Shown: in pieces, positions 5,327 through 12,971 of the stretch | Position numbering within the stretch: position 1 is the stretch's first letter | Layout of the letters: the number at the start of each line of letters is the position of its first letter | From: Acidobacteriota bacterium | GTDB lineage: Bacteria; Acidobacteriota; UBA6911; RPQK01; JADFOI01 | Reading direction: 5' to 3' | DNA: 64,000 bases | NCBI GenBank assembly: GCA_963663035.1 | Contig: OY760074.1 | Coordinates: forward strand, 3,456,001 to 3,520,000 | Position numbers and translations under genes: made by a program | Notes under the pieces: generated by a model | The model's input: only the letters and a program-made list of their open reading frames with translations | Databases searched by the model: none | Told to the model about the DNA's origin: nothing

Positions 5327-7669
5327 TTGACATTCCCGATGGCGATGACCCTGGCCATCCTTCTGCTGGCCGTTGTGCTGTTCGTGACCGAGCGGCTGCG
5401 GGTCGATGTGGTGGCCATGGTGGTTTTAGTCAGCCTGGTTCTGACCGGCTTGGTCACTTCGGAGAAGGCACTATCCGGATTCAGTAACCCAGCGGTGGTG
5501 ACCGTCTGGGCAGTTTTCATTCTCAGTGGCGGCCTCTCTCGGACGGGTGTGGCCAACCTGGTGGGCCGATATCTCCTACGCCTGGCCAACCACGGCGAAG
5601 TCCGACTTTCAGTGATGATCATGCTGACGGCTGGTATCCTGTCGGCTTTCATGAACAACGTGGGTGTGGTCGCGCTGCTTTTGCCCGTGGTCATGGATAT
5701 TTCCCGCCGCACCGGCACTTTGCCCTCAAAGTTGTTGATCCCTCTATCTTTTAGCGGACTCCTGGGTGGGCTCACCACCCTCATCGGTACGCCACCGAAT
5801 ATTCTCATCAGTAACCTGGCGGATGACTTCGGTATGAGCCCCTTTCGGTTTTTCGATTTCACGCCGGTCGGCCTGCCCGTTATGTTAGCTGGGATTGCCT
5901 TTCTGGCCCTGATTGGGCCTCGCCTCCTGCCCACAAGAGACTTGAGCAAAGTGGCTACGCGCGGCGAAACAGATCTGAAAAAGTTCTTCACCTTGGATGA
6001 GCAAATGTTCATTGTAGGCTTGGGGCCGGACTCCTTTTTGGCCGGCAAGACCCTGGCTCAAAGCCGCCTGGGCTCAGCTCTGGGGTTGATCGTCATTGGC
6101 ATTATCCGCGATGGGCGAACCAAATTGGCGCCTCATCCCAACACCACTCTTAAAGCTGGGGACAGATTACTAGTTGAGGGACAGCCGACTCAGTTCACCG
6201 AACTCCGTGGGCAACAGCTTGTGGTGGAAGACGATGACGTGAGCGTCGAGAGACTGATTACATCTGAAATCAATATGGCCGAGGTCAGGCTCTCCCTCGA
6301 TTCCGCACTTCTGGGCCAGACAGTGAAGGAAATAGATTTCCGCCGGCTTATGGGGATTAACGTACTGACCCTTTGGCGCCAGGGCGTCCCTCAAAAGAGT
6401 AACCTGCAGGATACTCCGCTGCAGACTGGAGACATCTTGCTGGTACAGGCAGCACGTGCACAGCTGGATGCGCTGAGGGATGATCCCAACATTATCGTCT
6501 CCAGAGTCGACCAGGCCAGAGTCTATCAACTGAACGAAAGGCTTCTCCTGGTGGGGGTCCCGCCGGAATCACTCCTGGTCGGGAAGACCTTGGCCGAGAG
6601 CCGGCTGGGGGATGCCTTCGGTGTGACGGTGTTAGGTATCGTCCGCGAGGGGACGACCCATCTGATGCCCAAGCCTTCAGAAGAACTGAAGGCTGGTGAC
6701 AGTTTGCTGGTTGAAGGACAGCTGGACGACCTGGTGACGATGCGTGGCCTCCAGACCCTGGAAGTGGAGTCCCAGGCCCCGCCAGACCTCAGCGAGCTGG
6801 AGTCGGAAAGCATCGGCCTGACAGAGGTGGTGCTAACCCCTCACACCACCCTGGTAGGGAAAACACTGGGCCAGCTTCACTTCCGCGAAAAATACGGGTT
6901 AAGTGTGCTGGCTATATGGCGCGAGGGTGAGGTCTATCGCTCCGACCTGCGTGACATGGAACTGCGCTTCGGCGATGCTCTTTTGTTTCACGGTCCTCGA
7001 GAGAAGTTGAAGATACTGAGCGATGAACCGGATTTTCTGGTGCTAACCGGGAAAGTGCAGGCAGTGCCACTGCTGCACAAAGCGCCCATCGCTACTCTGG
7101 TGATGGTTTTTGTGGTGCTGTCGGTCATGCTTGGGTGGCTTCCGATTTCCATGGCCACCGTGGCAGGAGCGACCGTGATGATCCTGACGGGCTGCCTGAC
7201 GATGGACGAGGCTTACCGCTTTATCGACTGGCGCGCCGTCTTTCTCATCGCCGGCATGCTGTCCTTGGGGGTTGCCATCCAGGAAAGCGGCACTTCACAG
7301 TTCATCTCCCAGGCTATCCTCTCACCGATCGGTGGGTTTGGGCCACTGGCCGTGCTGACCGGTGTCTTTGTCATAACCGCCCTGGCTGCCCAGGTCATGC
7401 CCACTCCCGCTGTGGCAGTGCTGATGGCTCCCATTGCCTTGAACACCGCTTCCACGTTCGGCATGTCCCCGCAAGCCCTCCTGATGACGGTGGCGATGGC
7501 TGCCTCTGCCAGCTTTATGAGCCCGGTGGCTCACCCGGCCAACATGCTTGTGATGGGCCCCGGCGGCTATCGCTTTACCGACTACACCAAGATAGGCTTG
7601 CCCCTCACGCTGGTGATCCTGGTGGTGGTCTTGCTGGTGCTGCCCATCTTCTGGCCCCTCTATCCTTAG
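5327..7669 (+). CDS. SLC13/DASS family permease with multiple TrkA-C (RCK_C) domains
   Basis: SAFMNN and TLIGTPPN motifs; four GKTL...GDxLL repeats; C-terminal PGGYRFTDY. Confidence 0.9.
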   Translation: MTFPMAMTLAILLLAVVLFVTERLRVDVVAMVVLVSLVLTGLVTSEKALSGFSNPAVVTVWAVFILSGGLSRTGVANLVGRYLLRLANHGEVRLSVMIMLTAGILSAFMNNVGVVALLLPVVMDISRRTGTLPSKLLIPLSFSGLLGGLTTLIGTPPNILISNLADDFGMSPFRFFDFTPVGLPVMLAGIAFLALIGPRLLPTRDLSKVATRGETDLKKFFTLDEQMFIVGLGPDSFLAGKTLAQSRLGSALGLIVIGIIRDGRTKLAPHPNTTLKAGDRLLVEGQPTQFTELRGQQLVVEDDDVSVERLITSEINMAEVRLSLDSALLGQTVKEIDFRRLMGINVLTLWRQGVPQKSNLQDTPLQTGDILLVQAARAQLDALRDDPNIIVSRVDQARVYQLNERLLLVGVPPESLLVGKTLAESRLGDAFGVTVLGIVREGTTHLMPKPSEELKAGDSLLVEGQLDDLVTMRGLQTLEVESQAPPDLSELESESIGLTEVVLTPHTTLVGKTLGQLHFREKYGLSVLAIWREGEVYRSDLRDMELRFGDALLFHGPREKLKILSDEPDFLVLTGKVQAVPLLHKAPIATLVMVFVVLSVMLGWLPISMATVAGATVMILTGCLTMDEAYRFIDWRAVFLIAGMLSLGVAIQESGTSQFISQAILSPIGGFGPLAVLTGVFVITALAAQVMPTPAVAVLMAPIALNTASTFGMSPQALLMTVAMAASASFMSPVAHPANMLVMGPGGYRFTDYTKIGLPLTLVILVVVLLVLPIFWPLYP

Positions 7670-7869
7670 CCGGGAGAATGCATAGATTTTCTACTGCAGT
7701 GCCGCAATCATCCGCGCTGACTGCGTTATGCGACCCGCAAGCGGGTACCCCTCGTCCGCCAGTCGGAGCCGCAGGCTTTAGCCTGCGGGCCCGTGGGCTA
7801 AAGCCCACGGCTCTGTTTTCCGGCGCCTGCGGCACTTCGTCACGAAAACCTATGCATTCTCCCGGCTTA
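7667..7869. mobile_element. ~200-bp palindromic MITE/REP-like element, copy 1
   Basis: ~24-bp terminal inverted repeats (agccgggagaatgcatagattttc / gaaaacctatgcattctcccggct); internal palindromes ccgcaggctttagcctgcgg and ccgtgggctaaagcccacgg; related copies at 32276 and 45444. Confidence 0.8.
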
Positions 7870-7880
7870 GCCGAATTCCT

Positions 7881-9296
7881 CTAGAAGAAACGCCAGAGCC
7901 ACCATTTTTCAAAGCCAACCTTCGCCCAGTAGATCAGCTGGGAAGGTCCCCAGGCACGACTCTCAGCCGCACCAAAGGGAGGCCAGCCAGCCGGATAGAC
8001 GGTGCGATTTGCAGCGGCGCGACCCGCGCCGAAAGCCAGCAGTCATAGGGTGTGCAGGCGGAAGTTTGTGGGTTCTCCATTACCTGTTATTTCCACCGTC
8101 AGGTTGTGAGCTACCACTTCAGCTTGTTGATGAGCGACGCCGCCCGCGCAGTCACCGATGCAGTACACATTGCCCCAACGAGTCATCGATTTGGAGACCG
8201 GCATGTTCGCGCAGTCGTAGTACACATTGCCCCAACGAGTCATCAGGGTATCGTAGTCCACCCCCGCTTGTGTCTCGACCAGGCTGCTGTCCAGCAGCAC
8301 CTGAGCCGGTTGATGGGGTGGAACCAGAAAAAGCAGATCGTATGGGAGTTCGTAGCCGTAAAGGGCCTTGACGACTTTGCGCTGGGAATCGATGGACTGA
8401 ACCGAAAATGAGTAATGTTGCTGGACTCCTCTCTTCTTGCTCTGCGCGTCCATCCACACCGCCGGAGTGCGATCTTCTCCTGCCGGCTCCGGGTTGGGAG
8501 TAAAAAATTCGATCTGTACCTTTTCGCGCAGCCCTCGGTCTTGGAAGTAACTGTCCAGCATCCACTGGGCTTCGTAGGGTGCAGGAGGGCACCGGTAGGG
8601 CCCGGGTGGAACTCCTACTAGAATCCGACCCTCTTGAAAGGATTCAAGAGTCTTTCGCAAGCGCAGCGTGGCCTCCAGCTCCCAGCTGTGTTGAGCCGCC
8701 TCGGTAAAGCCCGGAAGCAGCTCCGGTGCCGTACGCAGGCCCAGTGAGATGATCAGGTAGTCATAGGAGATGGGCCCGCTGTCCAGCAGGACCTCCTGGC
8801 GCTTGGGGTCGATCCCCTCAATTTCGGCCTGGATCACTTGGACATTGCGTTGCTCAAGCTTTTTTAGCTTGCGCACGATATCGTTCGGTTGTCTCTGCCC
8901 CACCATCAAGAAAAGGAAGCCCGGCATGAAGATGTGTTCGGTCCGTCGATCGATCAATATCACGTCGTGATCCTTGCCCAGATTGATCCCCAGCTGTGTC
9001 GCGGCTACCAGGCCTCCACTTCCACCTCCCAGCACCAGGATCTTGCGGCGCTTGGTTGTGGGCGGCTTCGGTGTCATGAGATGGAGATCGTTGAGCCGAC
9101 GCTGGCGCCACAACCGTTGGTCTTCCACGCCCTCCTGGGTCATTTCGCTGGCGAACTCCGAGGTGGAACTCAGGAGAAAGGAGACAAAGGAATCTGACAT
9201 CTGCCTGATTGGCTCCAGCAGATGATTCGACCTGAGCGCGAATAAAAAGATTGCCACTGCAAAGAACAGACCGATCGCCAAAATCGAAGTTAGCAC
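7881..9296 (-). CDS. SQR/FCSD-family FAD-dependent oxidoreductase, probable selenoprotein (in-frame UGA at 8043-8045), with an N-terminal TM anchor
   Basis: GGGSGG Rossmann motif; YRCPPAPYE; frame continues 53 codons past the UGA to a family-typical C-terminus (YWAKVGFEKWWLWRFF, TAG at 7881); GTG start with GGAGG RBS. Confidence 0.8.
8015..8031 (-). promoter_or_regulatory. Putative bacterial SECIS hairpin
   Basis: mRNA reads UGA + 11 nt + CGGCGCG-GGU-CGCGCCG (perfect 7-bp stem, G/U apical loop). Confidence 0.65.
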
Positions 9297-9343
9297 AAGT
9301 CCTCCAGGTAATTGTCCATTCGGCAGCGACGAAGTGAGCCCGG

Positions 9344-10324
9344 CTAGCGGATGAAAGTGTCTTCTTTTCCGAGATTAGCGACAACTTCGCTCAAGGAAAC
9401 CTCCGCTGGGTCCCCCTTCTCGAGCAAGCCAATCTGACGCAAGAATTCTCCGATCTGAGCGTGATCTCTAGGTGTAACCGGTTTGAAAGGAGGGACTGGG
9501 TCTCCGAGATCCAGGCCGAAGTGCTTCATGGCTGATTTCATGATGGGCGGCAGACCATAGGCTGCCCACTTGGCCGGGAACATGGAGTAGAATCGTTGCC
9601 AGTACTGCGCCCGTTCGTGATCTCCCTCGCGGAAGGCCTTAACCACCTGAGCACCGATTCGAGTCCCGGGGGGTGGCATGGTGGCACCGGAGCCGCCCAT
9701 CACCAGCGTCATCAAAAGCGGCTGCATGGTGGTGAAATAAAGAGCGTTCCCGCTTAACTGTATTTCTTCGATCATCCGGGTGATCTTAATGATGTCGCGT
9801 GAACTCTCCTTAAAAGCGGAGACGTTGAAAATGGTACTCAGCTGAATGGTATTTTCCATGTTTGGATCAGCGCCGGGACCTGGATTATGGTAGGCGACGA
9901 TCGGCAAGGGGCTGGCCAGGGCCACCTCGCTAAAGTAATCGACCAACTCCTGCATGGCAGGCTGACCTCCCCAGGGCCGCAGCGGCATCAGGACCTGTAC
10001 CATGTCAGCGTCCAGGCTGGCACAGTATTCGGCCAGCTCAATCACCTTTCCGTGGGCAGGGTGGGAGGCGCCAAGGATCACCGGGATGCGTTTGCCAACC
10101 ATCTCGGTTGCCCGACGCATCAACTCTTTCCGCTCTTCCAGAGACAGGACCGTGTACTCCGCGGCCTCGACTGCGGCGATGGAAATCGCATCGGCGTCCT
10201 CCACGATGAAGTCGATTTCTTTCTCCAGGGCGTGGTAGTCAATGTTTCCCTCCTGGTCAAACGGGGTCAAGCAGGCACCGATGATGCCGTTTATCGAAGG
10301 AAGTGATGGCGGCTGAGTTTTCAT
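9344..10324 (-). CDS. Dihydrodipicolinate synthase/N-acetylneuraminate lyase family aldolase (divergent)
   Basis: LTPFDQEGNID, LSLEERKEL and Schiff-base FKESS motifs; the GxxGE motif is replaced by VEAAE. Confidence 0.8.
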   Translation of the reverse strand: MKTQPPSLPSINGIIGACLTPFDQEGNIDYHALEKEIDFIVEDADAISIAAVEAAEYTVLSLEERKELMRRATEMVGKRIPVILGASHPAHGKVIELAEYCASLDADMVQVLMPLRPWGGQPAMQELVDYFSEVALASPLPIVAYHNPGPGADPNMENTIQLSTIFNVSAFKESSRDIIKITRMIEEIQLSGNALYFTTMQPLLMTLVMGGSGATMPPPGTRIGAQVVKAFREGDHERAQYWQRFYSMFPAKWAAYGLPPIMKSAMKHFGLDLGDPVPPFKPVTPRDHAQIGEFLRQIGLLEKGDPAEVSLSEVVANLGKEDTFIR

Positions 10325-10496: not shown

Positions 10497-11501
10497 ATGA
10501 TGAAAATCGATGTCTTTAACCACATTTTAACCCCCAAGTTTAATGAAGAGCGCCTCAAGCACGCGCCCCCTGAGTTGAGTTCGATCCTGGCAGCACGTAT
10601 CAAAAACATCCCTGCCTTGTGGGATCTCGATACGAGATTCAAGATCATGGATATGTTTGAGGATTATGTGCAGGTGCTGACACTGGCCAATCCTCCGCTG
10701 GAGGTGCTTGCGGGGCCGGAGGAGGCCTTGGAACTTGCCCGCATCGGCAACGATGAGATGGCTGAGCTTGTGGCCAAATATCCTGATCGTTTCGTGGCCG
10801 CAGTGGCCTCGATTCCCATGAACAATGTGGATGGGGCTCTGCAAGAGATGGACCGGGCGATCAATGATCTGGGGTTGAAAGGTGTGCAGATTTTTTCGCC
10901 CATGAAGGGGCGTGCCCTCGATCATCCTGACTTCTTACCGGTCTTTGAGAAAATCGCAGGATACGACCTGCCGATTTTGCTTCATCCGGCAAGGAATTTC
11001 CGATTCGCCGATTATCCTGCTGAGGATGAGTCCCAAGTTGCAATCTGGCATATCTTTGGCTGGCCCTACGACACAGCCGCAGCCATGACCCGGCTGGTGC
11101 TTTGGGGAATATTCGACAAGTTTCCGAATCTAAAAATCATTACCCATCATTTGGGTGGTCTCGTACCCTTTACGGAGGGAAGAATCCTGTCGGGATATGA
11201 CAAGCTGGCCAAAACCCCGAAGGGGAAGAGCTTGCTGGATCGACTTGAAAAGCATCCCCATGAGTACTTCCGAATGTTCTATGCAGACACGGTAACCAAT
11301 GGATCACTTGCAGCCCTGGAGTGTGGAGTGGATTTTTTTGGCGCGGATCAGGTCGTGTTTGCTACGGACCATCCTTTTGACTCGGAAGGCGGCGCCGGGT
11401 ATGTTCGCGACACCATCAGTGCTCTAAGCGGGCTGACGGCTTCGGACGAAGACAAGAAGAAGATCTACCAAGAAAATGCGAAGCGCTTGTTCAAGCTGTA
11501 G
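10497..11501 (+). CDS. Amidohydrolase 2 family (ACMSD/LigW-like decarboxylase/hydratase)
   Basis: IDVFNH, ILLHP, THHLGG and FATDHPF motifs. Confidence 0.85.
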   Translation: MMKIDVFNHILTPKFNEERLKHAPPELSSILAARIKNIPALWDLDTRFKIMDMFEDYVQVLTLANPPLEVLAGPEEALELARIGNDEMAELVAKYPDRFVAAVASIPMNNVDGALQEMDRAINDLGLKGVQIFSPMKGRALDHPDFLPVFEKIAGYDLPILLHPARNFRFADYPAEDESQVAIWHIFGWPYDTAAAMTRLVLWGIFDKFPNLKIITHHLGGLVPFTEGRILSGYDKLAKTPKGKSLLDRLEKHPHEYFRMFYADTVTNGSLAALECGVDFFGADQVVFATDHPFDSEGGAGYVRDTISALSGLTASDEDKKKIYQENAKRLFKL

Positions 11502-11531
11502 CCCGAATTTCTCAACCCGAAAGGAAAGCTC

Positions 11532-12971
11532 ATGAGTCCTTCATTGGAATGCGGCGAAGCACAGCTGTTTATTGGAGGGCGCTGGGTAGGCGGAGGGTCC
11601 CCGCTAGAGGTTCGCAACAAGTACAACGGAGAGGTTATCGCCAGCTTGCCGACGGCCCGGGAAGAGGAGGTGGAGGCTTCCATTGCAGCGGCCTGTAAAT
11701 GCGCTCCTGTAATGGCAGCGATGCCGGCCCACAAGAGAAGCGAAGTTCTGGAGCGCACGGCCTTGCTGATTCGAGAGCAGCGTGAGGAGATCGCCCGGAC
11801 CATTGCACTGGAAGCCGGAAAAGCTTTGAAGTTCGCACGCGTTGAGGTGGACCGAGCTGTGAGTACCTTCTCGATTGCCGCACAAGAGGCGGGACGCATT
11901 CACGGAGAAACAGTACCCTTGGACGCTGTGCCAGCCGGAGAGGGTTTCTTTGGTTTTTATGTTCGCCGCCCGGTGGGAGTGGTGGTTGCCATTGGTCCCT
12001 TTAACTTTCCCCTCAACCTGGTAGCCCACAAAGTGGCACCGGCCATTGCGGCTGGCAACAGCGTCGTGCTGAAACCGGCCAGTAGCACGCCAATGACCTC
12101 CGTGATGCTGTGCCGAATTCTGGAAAAGGCGGGACTGCCTGCGGGCGGCATCAATCTGGTGGTTGGATCGGGGAGCACGGTGGGAGAGTGGCTGGTGCGT
12201 GATCCCCGGGTGGCAAAGGTGACATTCACGGGCAGCCCGGAAGTGGGAGAACGGATCACACAGATAGCAGGGATCAAGAAAATCACTCTTGAACTGGGCA
12301 ACACCTCGCCCGTGATTGTGGCTTCTGATGCTGATCTGGACTTAGTGGCAAAGCGCTGTGCCGTGGGCGCCTATTATAATTCAGGTCAGGTGTGCCTGTC
12401 GGTACAACGGATTTACGGCGACCGGGCGATTTTTGAGCCTTTCACGGAAAAATTCGTGGAATCCAGCCAGGCGATGGTGGTCGGTGATCCCCTGGATGAG
12501 GCGGTCGACGTGGGACCCATGATCGACCAAGGCGAGGCTGAGCGAATCGAGGGTTGGGTTGCTGAGGCCACCGAAGGTGGCGCGGAGGTCTTGACGGGGG
12601 GACGGCGCGAAGGGTCCGTTTACTGGCCCACGGTCCTGACGAATGTGAAGCCGGAAATGAAGGTGGTCAAGGAAGAAACGTTTGCTCCAGTCGCCAGCTT
12701 GATCCCTTACGATGACTTCGAGGAAGCGCTTCGCCAGGCGGATGCCACCGAATACGGGCTGCAGGCCGCAGTCTTTACCCAGGATGTCGGCCGCGTGTTC
12801 CAGGCTATCCGAAGCCTGAACTTCGGTGGGGTGATTATCAACGACACGCCCACCTTTCGCGCCGATCATATGCCCTACGGAGGCCTTGGCCGAAGTGGAA
12901 TCGGCCGAGAGGGATTGCGCTATGCTGTGGAAGAGATGACCAACATTCAGATGGTGGCAATTCGCTGTTGA
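11532..12971 (+). CDS. NAD(P)-dependent aldehyde dehydrogenase
   Basis: PFNFP, FTGS, LELG, GQVC (catalytic Cys) and EETFAP motifs. Confidence 0.92.
   Translation: MSPSLECGEAQLFIGGRWVGGGSPLEVRNKYNGEVIASLPTAREEEVEASIAAACKCAPVMAAMPAHKRSEVLERTALLIREQREEIARTIALEAGKALKFARVEVDRAVSTFSIAAQEAGRIHGETVPLDAVPAGEGFFGFYVRRPVGVVVAIGPFNFPLNLVAHKVAPAIAAGNSVVLKPASSTPMTSVMLCRILEKAGLPAGGINLVVGSGSTVGEWLVRDPRVAKVTFTGSPEVGERITQIAGIKKITLELGNTSPVIVASDADLDLVAKRCAVGAYYNSGQVCLSVQRIYGDRAIFEPFTEKFVESSQAMVVGDPLDEAVDVGPMIDQGEAERIEGWVAEATEGGAEVLTGGRREGSVYWPTVLTNVKPEMKVVKEETFAPVASLIPYDDFEEALRQADATEYGLQAAVFTQDVGRVFQAIRSLNFGGVIINDTPTFRADHMPYGGLGRSGIGREGLRYAVEEMTNIQMVAIRC

Follow-up and report, generated by a model that had tools for sequence, protein, structure and literature searches.

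A predicted selenocysteine-containing flavoprotein of the SQR/FCSD superfamily, encoded in an Acidobacteriota genome and separate from family NF049943

Flavoproteins of the sulfide:quinone oxidoreductase (SQR) type with selenocysteine (Sec) at the second redox cysteine are already known as predictions. The 2025 deep-Sep report describes an NAD(P)/FAD-dependent oxidoreductase selenoprotein in Desulfosediminicola (PMC12013277), which corresponds to NCBIfam family NF049943 (SQR_III_seleno), and a 2026 review lists this Sec family with the motif HxxU and credits it to deep-Sep (PMC13188914). The gene considered here lies on the minus strand of a 64,000-nucleotide stretch of an Acidobacteriota bacterium genome (assembly GCA_963663035.1, contig OY760074.1, positions 3,456,001 to 3,520,000), hereafter called the window. 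A first-pass annotation, made from the letters of the window, had proposed that this gene encodes a Sec-containing protein of the SQR or flavocytochrome c sulfide dehydrogenase (FCSD) type with a Cys/Sec redox pair, and had described the family as not known to be an established selenoprotein family. The second statement has been overtaken by the in silico prediction of NF049943; the first gains support from the alignment of the in-frame UGA with a catalytic cysteine (Cys347 of the Aquifex SQR), from the invariance of that codon in related loci and from the presence of the Sec machinery. The best explanation, with a probability of about 0.88, is that the gene encodes an SQR/FCSD-superfamily flavoprotein in which the second active-site Cys is replaced by a predicted Sec. 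The clade to which it belongs is separate from NF049943 and uncatalogued, and literature searches yielded nothing on it, only the family predicted by deep-Sep and the review of 2026; the supplementary tables of both papers may list TGA-containing homologues that belong to this clade.

A search of GTDB genomes confirmed 155 relatives of the gene, and 80 loci were kept for counts. Against NF049943, the window protein scored 215.8 bits (208.6 in six-frame translation), far under the cut-off of 525, and clade members scored about 157-259 bits; the clade therefore falls outside the curated family. None of 31 genomes, namely that of the window and those of 30 relatives, contains a match that reaches the cut-off, and the full-length genes of the window type in these genomes, mostly with one TGA, scored 209-253 bits. 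Among 301 genomes of the phylum of genome G001, 18 were over the cut-off, with 20 matches, 7 of them with one TGA and 13 without. Like NF049943, the clade has the superfamily fold, Sec at the same column, three residues past a conserved His, and the HxxU motif (HAT-TGA in the true member L098, HTL-TGA in the window), and Cys forms occur in both, as the 13 matches without TGA and the clade protein P0021 illustrate. The two differ in several respects: L098 and the window protein share only 27-31% of their residues, a small upstream partner was not found at six true-member loci, the clade almost always has Sec (79/79 genomes), and the phyla are not the same (Binatia, Acidobacteriota and others for the clade).

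The open reading frame (ORF) starts at a GTG (9296-9294) preceded by GGAGGA and comprises 417 codons (9296..8046), ending in ...FRLHTL-TGA with the TGA at 8045-8043. After the TGA, 53 codons stay open (LLAFGAGRAAANRT...WWLWRFF) up to a TAG at 7883-7881, exactly as the first-pass annotation had placed them. A read-derived contig (record 6 of run X1) covers 7887-8144 without a difference and includes the TGA, which speaks against a sequencing error at this codon. As judged by the labels of the metagenome-assembled genomes, the related loci come from Acidobacteriota, Binatia, Thermodesulfobacteriota/Deltaproteobacteria, Chloroflexota, Verrucomicrobiia/Verrucomicrobiota and Eisenbacteria, at least six phyla. 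One locus (L017) ends at a contig edge before the UGA site, leaving 79 assessable loci. The codon is TGA in all 79, never TAA or TAG, and in all 79 the tail follows the consensus U-LL[AS][FYC]GAGRAAANRT.YP.GWPPFG....R.WGPS..IYWAK.GFEKWWLWRYF. The terminal stops of the same 79 genes are TAG in 35, TGA in 24 and TAA in 20; hence these organisms use TGA as a normal stop codon, and invariance is confined to the internal TGA. The Ile codon that precedes the UGA is the rare ATA in 76 of the 80 sequences and the base that follows it is C in 78, which suggests selection on the immediate UGA context besides the hairpin described below.

Protein databases reflect the same site. A homologue search returned 886 matches, and 116 of the best 120 terminate exactly at ...H[TVD][ILM]. 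A further protein in this set (P0085) ends in ...LRLLTL, judged by eye to be the same place, so 117 of the best 120 are cut at the UGA codon. In the databases searched, the clade is represented only by truncated proteins, which carry the name 'NAD(P)/FAD-dependent oxidoreductase' or else 'sulfide:quinone oxidoreductase'. The remaining three are a fragment (P0009), a form that reads through with Cys (P0021) and a form that reads through with Asn (P0023). UGA/Cys alternation at this position, which had been suggested as a check, is thus represented by 79 TGA loci and a single Cys form. The Asn form also carries PTRCPPALYE in place of PYRCPPAPYE.

The 471-residue read-through product matched Pfam Pyr_redox_2 and FCSD_central, and its sequence matches in the PDB were solved SQRs and FCSD flavoproteins, including human SQOR (3.6e-26) and the Aquifex aeolicus SQR 3hyv, which spans query residues 84-469. 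An AlphaFold model, for which the window protein and the proteins returned by the homologue searches served as input, had a mean predicted local distance difference test score (pLDDT) of 83.6 and a predicted TM-score of 0.81. The nearest solved folds in Foldseek were human SQOR, A. ferrooxidans SQR and A. aeolicus SQR (E ~1e-29, TM-score on target 0.75-0.80), followed by FCSD subunits and then NDH-2. In the model, the tail beyond the UGA contributes to strands 415-423, 426-433 and 445-452 and to helix 453-470, mostly with pLDDT 69-93; the first of these strands passes through residue 418, and the tail is part of the fold.

The placement of the UGA at the second catalytic Cys was borne out in two ways. 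When the last 146 residues were aligned with phmmer, residue 418 fell opposite Cys347 of 3hyv (rlhtlC-llafg versus rlsaiC-iadfg). Among 30 full-length distant homologues (28-37% identity), drawn from a search of 1.84 billion representatives, the U column is Cys in 25, and the same 25 have Cys at the column of Cys236; the other five have Cys at neither. The CPxAPYE motif reported earlier is present as CPPAPYE and includes Cys236 (codon 8591-8589), within PYRCPPAPYE, a first-Cys motif that we take to be FCSD-like. The features expected of an SQR found here are thus a two-Rossmann-domain flavin adenine dinucleotide (FAD) fold with GxGxxG and the positions of the redox pair, occupied by Cys236 and the predicted Sec418. 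When compared with the solved enzymes (A. aeolicus 3hyv, A. ferrooxidans 3t31/3sz0 and human SQOR 6oi5, and the FCSD flavoprotein subunits 1fcd and 5n1t), the protein shares the two-Rossmann-domain flavoprotein fold, the GxGxxG motif, an FEK-W-type terminal helix and the redox pair at the positions of Cys156 and Cys347 (Aquifex numbering; Cys347 by alignment), Cys156 presumably being the first redox Cys of the Aquifex enzyme. It differs from them in the predicted replacement of the second Cys by Sec, in an identity of only 19-24% and in a C-terminus shorter than that of the Aquifex enzyme, and also in the small partner protein particular to the clade, which is either separate or fused at the N-terminus with its hydrophobic helix.

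The genome that contains the window (one 3.59-Mb contig, 96.6% complete) was examined for selA, selB, selC and selD, and all were present. The curated cut-offs were exceeded by selB (370 bits, cut-off 242), selA (559, cut-off 268) and selD (378, cut-off 125), and a 99-nt tRNA-Sec with anticodon tca was located at C1 c[3121529,3121627]. About 10 kb from it, selD (C1 3111136-3112059) is itself a selenoprotein gene with one in-frame TGA (...VDCAGU-ASKL...). In addition, selB was over the cut-off in 5/5 other carrier genomes from five lineages, giving 6/6 with the window genome.

A perfect hairpin, CGGCGCG-GGU-CGCGCCG, had been noted exactly 11 nt after the UGA, and its sequence and spacing are as described: an 11-nt spacer (8042-8032), a 5' arm CGGCGCG (8031-8025), a GGU loop (8024-8022) and a 3' arm CGCGCCG (8021-8015), all inside the coding sequence for F-G-A-G-R-A-A. 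The Sec insertion sequence (SECIS) of E. coli fdhF likewise starts about 11 nt after its UGA and has a GU-containing loop. With SECIS elements of this type, the clade shares a stem-loop within the coding sequence 11 nt past the UGA and G residues that open the apical loop; it differs in its short, all-GC stem of 6 bp with a 5-nt loop, and no bulged U is evident. The UGA context of selD from the same genome was rejected as a SECIS comparator, its hairpin following the UGA directly with a different loop and no common pattern.

An alignment of 80 sequences, 79 of them distinct, was used to analyse the stem. Six core pairs are formed in 98-100% of the 79 distinct sequences; the seventh, which gives the GGU loop in the window, is formed in only 32 of them. 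The changes observed in the stem are eight one-sided C-to-U replacements opposite G, compatible with wobble pairing, and two breaks. At the four-fold degenerate sites within the stem, those of Gly GGC, Arg CGC and Ala GCC, the entropy is 0.17, 0.10 and 0.17 bit, with only C or rare T; at nine such sites in the loop and flanks it is 1.47-1.86 bit. The stem is under constraint at the RNA level. All TGA forms read FGAGRAAANR, and the residues encoded by the stem are lost in the Cys form P0021 (FEPGKAAANR) and the Asn form P0023 (TGPGHAAAVG); hence the GAGR residues are held by the RNA and not by the protein.

Given these elements, SelB and tRNA-Sec would decode the UGA at 8045-8043, directed by the GC-rich stem-loop 11 nt downstream. 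Sec418 and Cys236 of CPPAPYE would form a selenenylsulfide or bridged redox centre beside the FAD, for which sulfide or a persulfide-type substrate may be the electron donor, and from which the electrons may pass through FAD to a membrane acceptor or quinone. The small partner, fused here as the first 84 residues, would serve as a membrane anchor or subunit. As the last or next-to-last gene of a catabolic cluster, the gene would probably provide for disposal of reduced sulfur freed by that pathway.

The N-terminal extension with a hydrophobic helix, previously thought unusual, is present (residues 1-84, helix 2-20), and it is not an oddity of this protein. Residues 1-84 gave tblastn matches just 5' of the core in 37 of the 80 loci, and a hidden Markov model built from these matches found a homologue in upstream same-strand ORFs of 78/78 testable loci, i.e. 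those in which the core could be recognised and the DNA before it was available (L020 and L084 have no upstream sequence). As judged by sequence, the extension is a fused copy of the small partner protein of the clade. Fusion in frame occurs only in L013-L017, L045 and the window, and the partner is a separate ORF in 72 loci, of 58-102 residues in the 57 loci for which ORF bounds were set; this ORF can take any frame with respect to the core and ends 8-211 nt before the GGG motif of the core. Its consensus is SD..(hydrophobic)..TS.F[GE].ELT..G..EQ..WR.QR.RNL.GL, and some versions have an N-terminal hydrophobic helix; the fused module was modelled as helices 2-20, 24-43 and 54-70 with pLDDT 46-72. 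No Pfam or NCBIfam family matches the partner, and the partner model found no second copy in the window genome and none beside the six true NF049943 loci. It is plausible that the partner tethers the enzyme to the membrane or completes it there, and the fusion and the universal synteny suggest physical binding. A universal second small partner was not found downstream, where the largest cluster of same-strand small ORFs comprises 16-18 loci, the window not among them. In 16 loci, L067 among them, the gene is followed on its own strand by a small Cys-rich ORF (...YVCGYCLFF...GNCAYHKEW...), which the window lacks.

The genes around the core were counted in a tblastn recount over the 80 loci. A DHDPS-family homologue precedes the core on its own strand in 76 loci (77 anywhere in the locus), a cyclase or arylformamidase-like gene is present in 63, a CADD/PqqC-like iron enzyme in 59, a bifunctional-nuclease-domain gene on the opposite strand in 46 and Amidohydro_2 within 3 kb in 7. 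In the window, the divergent Amidohydro_2 and aldehyde dehydrogenase genes (10497..12971) are likely part of the same catabolic cluster as the gene and its upstream DHDPS-family neighbour. A fusion of metallo-beta-lactamase (MBL) and rhodanese domains is found 3' of the gene in 17 loci and on the opposite strand in 2 (19/80 in total); the figure of 46 loci from the first neighbour clustering was inflated by overlapping-frame ORFs and was discarded. This fusion resembles the Blh sulfur transferase/dioxygenase but scores under the cut-off of that model. On a complete Binatia chromosome (L100, G333:C1:1744000-1763900), an apparent 11-gene operon on one strand encodes, in order, SBP_bac_5, two permeases, a double ABC ATPase, Amidohydro_2, the CADD-like protein, the cyclase, DHDPS, the small ORF, the Sec-containing SQR-like protein and the MBL-rhodanese fusion, the importer genes being of the Opp-type ABC class. 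The gene set resembles a catabolic operon whose last part handles sulfur. No cytochrome, such as the cytochrome c subunit that partners the flavoprotein in FCSD, was identified among the conserved neighbour families, the neighbours not all having been scanned for haem-binding motifs.

Downstream of the gene in the window, a convergent gene (5327-7669) encodes a 780-residue CitMHS/SLC13-type permease with four TrkA_C domains and is not conserved beside the gene elsewhere. The intergenic region right past the TAG of the gene (7700-7868) is made up of short palindromic repeat modules, such as the inverted repeat at 7766-7813, each with ~40-200 copies in the 3.6-Mb genome and a read depth in the thousands, and looks like a REP- or MITE-like element family. 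The RNA run X18 yielded a single 162-nt contig (8899-9060) within the gene, which was considered insufficient for a claim of transcription.

The gene as assembled departs from its relatives in the stretch shown in Table 1. It contains an exact 26-nt direct repeat (8162-8187 and 8219-8244), is without the residues IR of AGIRVDYD, and reads NVYY-DCANMPVSKS in place of NVYCIGDCANMPVSKS, after which MTRWGNVYCIGDCA is repeated. This arrangement was found in none of the 80 loci or the 120 best database proteins. Logan contigs from three runs of three studies (X1, X2 and X4), compared over 7700-9400, skip 8145-8186, add 6 letters at 8215-8218 and 6 after 8262, and are otherwise identical to the window; record 6 of X1 has no other differing letter over 7887-8144 and 8187-8583. 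X1 is possibly the source sample itself, and if so is not independent of the assembly. Corrected by these differences, the gene has 461 codons, 407 of them before the TGA, which is the single internal stop, and its product is collinear with the database protein P0002, with 55/55 residues identical around the GD motif.

Table 1. Features of the gene and its surroundings in the window.
Feature	Coordinates	Strand	Remarks
Complete read-through coding sequence as assembled	7881..9296	minus	471 residues and TAG stop
N-terminal module, residues 1-84	9045..9296	minus	Hydrophobic helix 2-20 and motif SD...TS.F..E.T..G..[DE]Q..WR..RL
GGGSGG dinucleotide (FAD) binding motif, residues 90-95	9012..9029	minus	Pyr_redox_2 match; G90, G92 and G95 invariant in homologue alignments
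Cys236 codon, first redox cysteine, in PYRCPPAPYE	8589..8591	minus	Invariant in clade; Cys in 25/30 distant homologues
Stretch differing from read-derived contigs	8145..8262	minus	Excess of 42 nt (8145-8186); two 6-nt gaps, at 8215-8218 and after 8262
In-frame TGA, putative selenocysteine 418, motif H-T-L-U	8043..8045	minus	TGA in 79/79 related loci; opposite Cys347 of 3hyv
SECIS-like stem-loop 11 nt past UGA	8015..8031	minus	Conserved core: 6-bp GC stem (8031-8026 with 8020-8015) and 5-nt loop N-G-G-N-C
Tail of 53 codons past UGA, terminus ...IYWAKVGFEKWWLWRFF	7884..8042	minus	Kept in all loci; aligned to Aquifex SQR residues 348-392
DHDPS-family (class I aldolase/lyase-like) gene directly upstream	9344..10324	minus	Pfam DHDPS; co-transcription with the gene probable
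Divergent Amidohydro_2 gene	10497-11501	plus	Pfam
Divergent aldehyde dehydrogenase gene	11532-12971	plus	Pfam

Several observations weigh against the interpretation as a Sec-containing SQR-type enzyme. Two-sided compensatory covariation was seen in 0/7 stem pairs among the 79 distinct sequences and shuffles did no worse, so covariation was rejected as proof of the hairpin. A 46-nt fold has an energy of -15.6 kcal/mol and a z-score of 0.28 relative to 200 shuffles, no better than shuffled sequence. The energy is unremarkable because the region is GC-rich, and the significance of the hairpin thus comes from conservation across relatives, with TGA in 79/79 loci and frozen synonymous sites in the stem, and not from the fold of a single sequence. 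No Rfam family was found over 7850-8150 at a permissive threshold, which gave two chance-level matches only. Helix 453-470 is present in the model, yet the protein stops at the equivalent of Aquifex residue 392 of 430, about 38 residues short of the C-terminus of that SQR; the partner with its hydrophobic helix may substitute for C-terminal amphipathic helices in the contact with membrane and quinone. It is the fold alone that points to quinone use, the window has no adjacent persulfide dioxygenase, such a gene being present in only 19/80 loci, and the insertion in the assembled gene hits the FAD-binding GD region, so that the enzyme of this strain could be impaired if the insertion is real.

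From the sequence evidence, the gene is very probably a genuine selenoprotein gene. That the TGA is an ordinary stop, either in a pseudogene created by a nonsense mutation or in a natural 417-residue protein with a chance or relic frame downstream, is extremely improbable: all gene callers end there and the window copy bears an odd rearrangement too, but the site is invariably TGA in the 79 loci, across phyla, and the terminal stops of the same genes vary, the 53-codon tail is conserved as protein and would, in the model, be needed for the beta-sheet and terminal helix, a truncated form would be without the catalytic residue, and the rearrangement is missing from the read contigs. It is also highly unlikely, if slightly less so, that the UGA is read through by near-cognate insertion of Trp or Cys or under a reassigned code. 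The inserted residue cannot be identified by computation alone, and UGA followed by C, as in 78/80 sequences, is a leaky context; against this, TGA is the terminal stop in 24/79 of the same genes, and thus the code is not reassigned, the SECIS-like stem is under selection at the RNA level, the residues it encodes are relaxed in precisely those forms that have Cys or Asn, the site is that of a redox Cys, and selB was present in 6/6 carrier genomes tested. As for the rearrangement, it is most likely an assembly artefact, a local consensus error. In favour of a true strain variant, with a 57-nt duplication, small deletions and so a damaged copy in this genome, each change preserves the reading frame (+42, -6 and -6 nt) and the genome is a single contig, but such a variant is unlikely given the canonical form in contigs from three runs of three studies that otherwise match the window, its absence from all 80 loci and 120 database proteins, and pLDDT values below 50 across the stretch (residues 366-382 of the assembled protein).

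A different question is whether the predicted selenoprotein acts as an SQR. A Cys/Sec centre acting instead on a thiol, persulfide or disulfide intermediate specific to the pathway of the DHDPS, Amidohydro_2, CADD-like and cyclase cluster is a possibility, although not the favoured one. The tight linkage to the DHDPS-family (76/80), cyclase (63) and CADD/PqqC-like (59) genes, the Opp-type importer in the Binatia operon and the identity of 19-24% to solved SQRs would all suit such a role, as would the score under the cut-off of NF049943, the only curated SQR-type model that matched the protein. However, SQRs and FCSD make up all of the nearest neighbours in structure and sequence, the protein retains the two redox positions of SQR, and in 17 loci the MBL-rhodanese fusion directly 3' is persulfide-dioxygenase-like, persulfide dioxygenase-rhodanese being the usual partner of SQR. 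The balance tilts moderately towards an enzyme that acts as an SQR proper.

For the predicted Sec-containing flavoprotein, the immediate consequence concerns annotation. Public records end the enzyme at its catalytic residue in 117 of the best 120 database matches, and it is therefore missing from reconstructed metabolism and from tallies of selenoproteins in Binatia, Acidobacteriota and related lineages of soil and groundwater. A Cys/Sec pair beside the flavin of an SQR-type enzyme would be a natural experiment on the contribution of selenium to persulfide chemistry, for which the clade supplies matched natural forms with Sec, Cys (P0021) or Asn (P0023) as ready comparators. The small partner, linked to the gene in all testable loci, and the operon built around DHDPS are handles for a substrate search. 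Tentatively, the clade may represent a distinct, essentially obligate selenoenzyme that works in a two-subunit complex with an undescribed small, partly membrane-spanning protein (fused in Acidobacteriota) and carries out sulfur disposal in a widely distributed catabolic operon of soil and groundwater bacteria that acts on an organosulfur compound taken up from outside. In that case it would be a new selenium-dependent link in environmental sulfur cycling and not a housekeeping variant of SQR.

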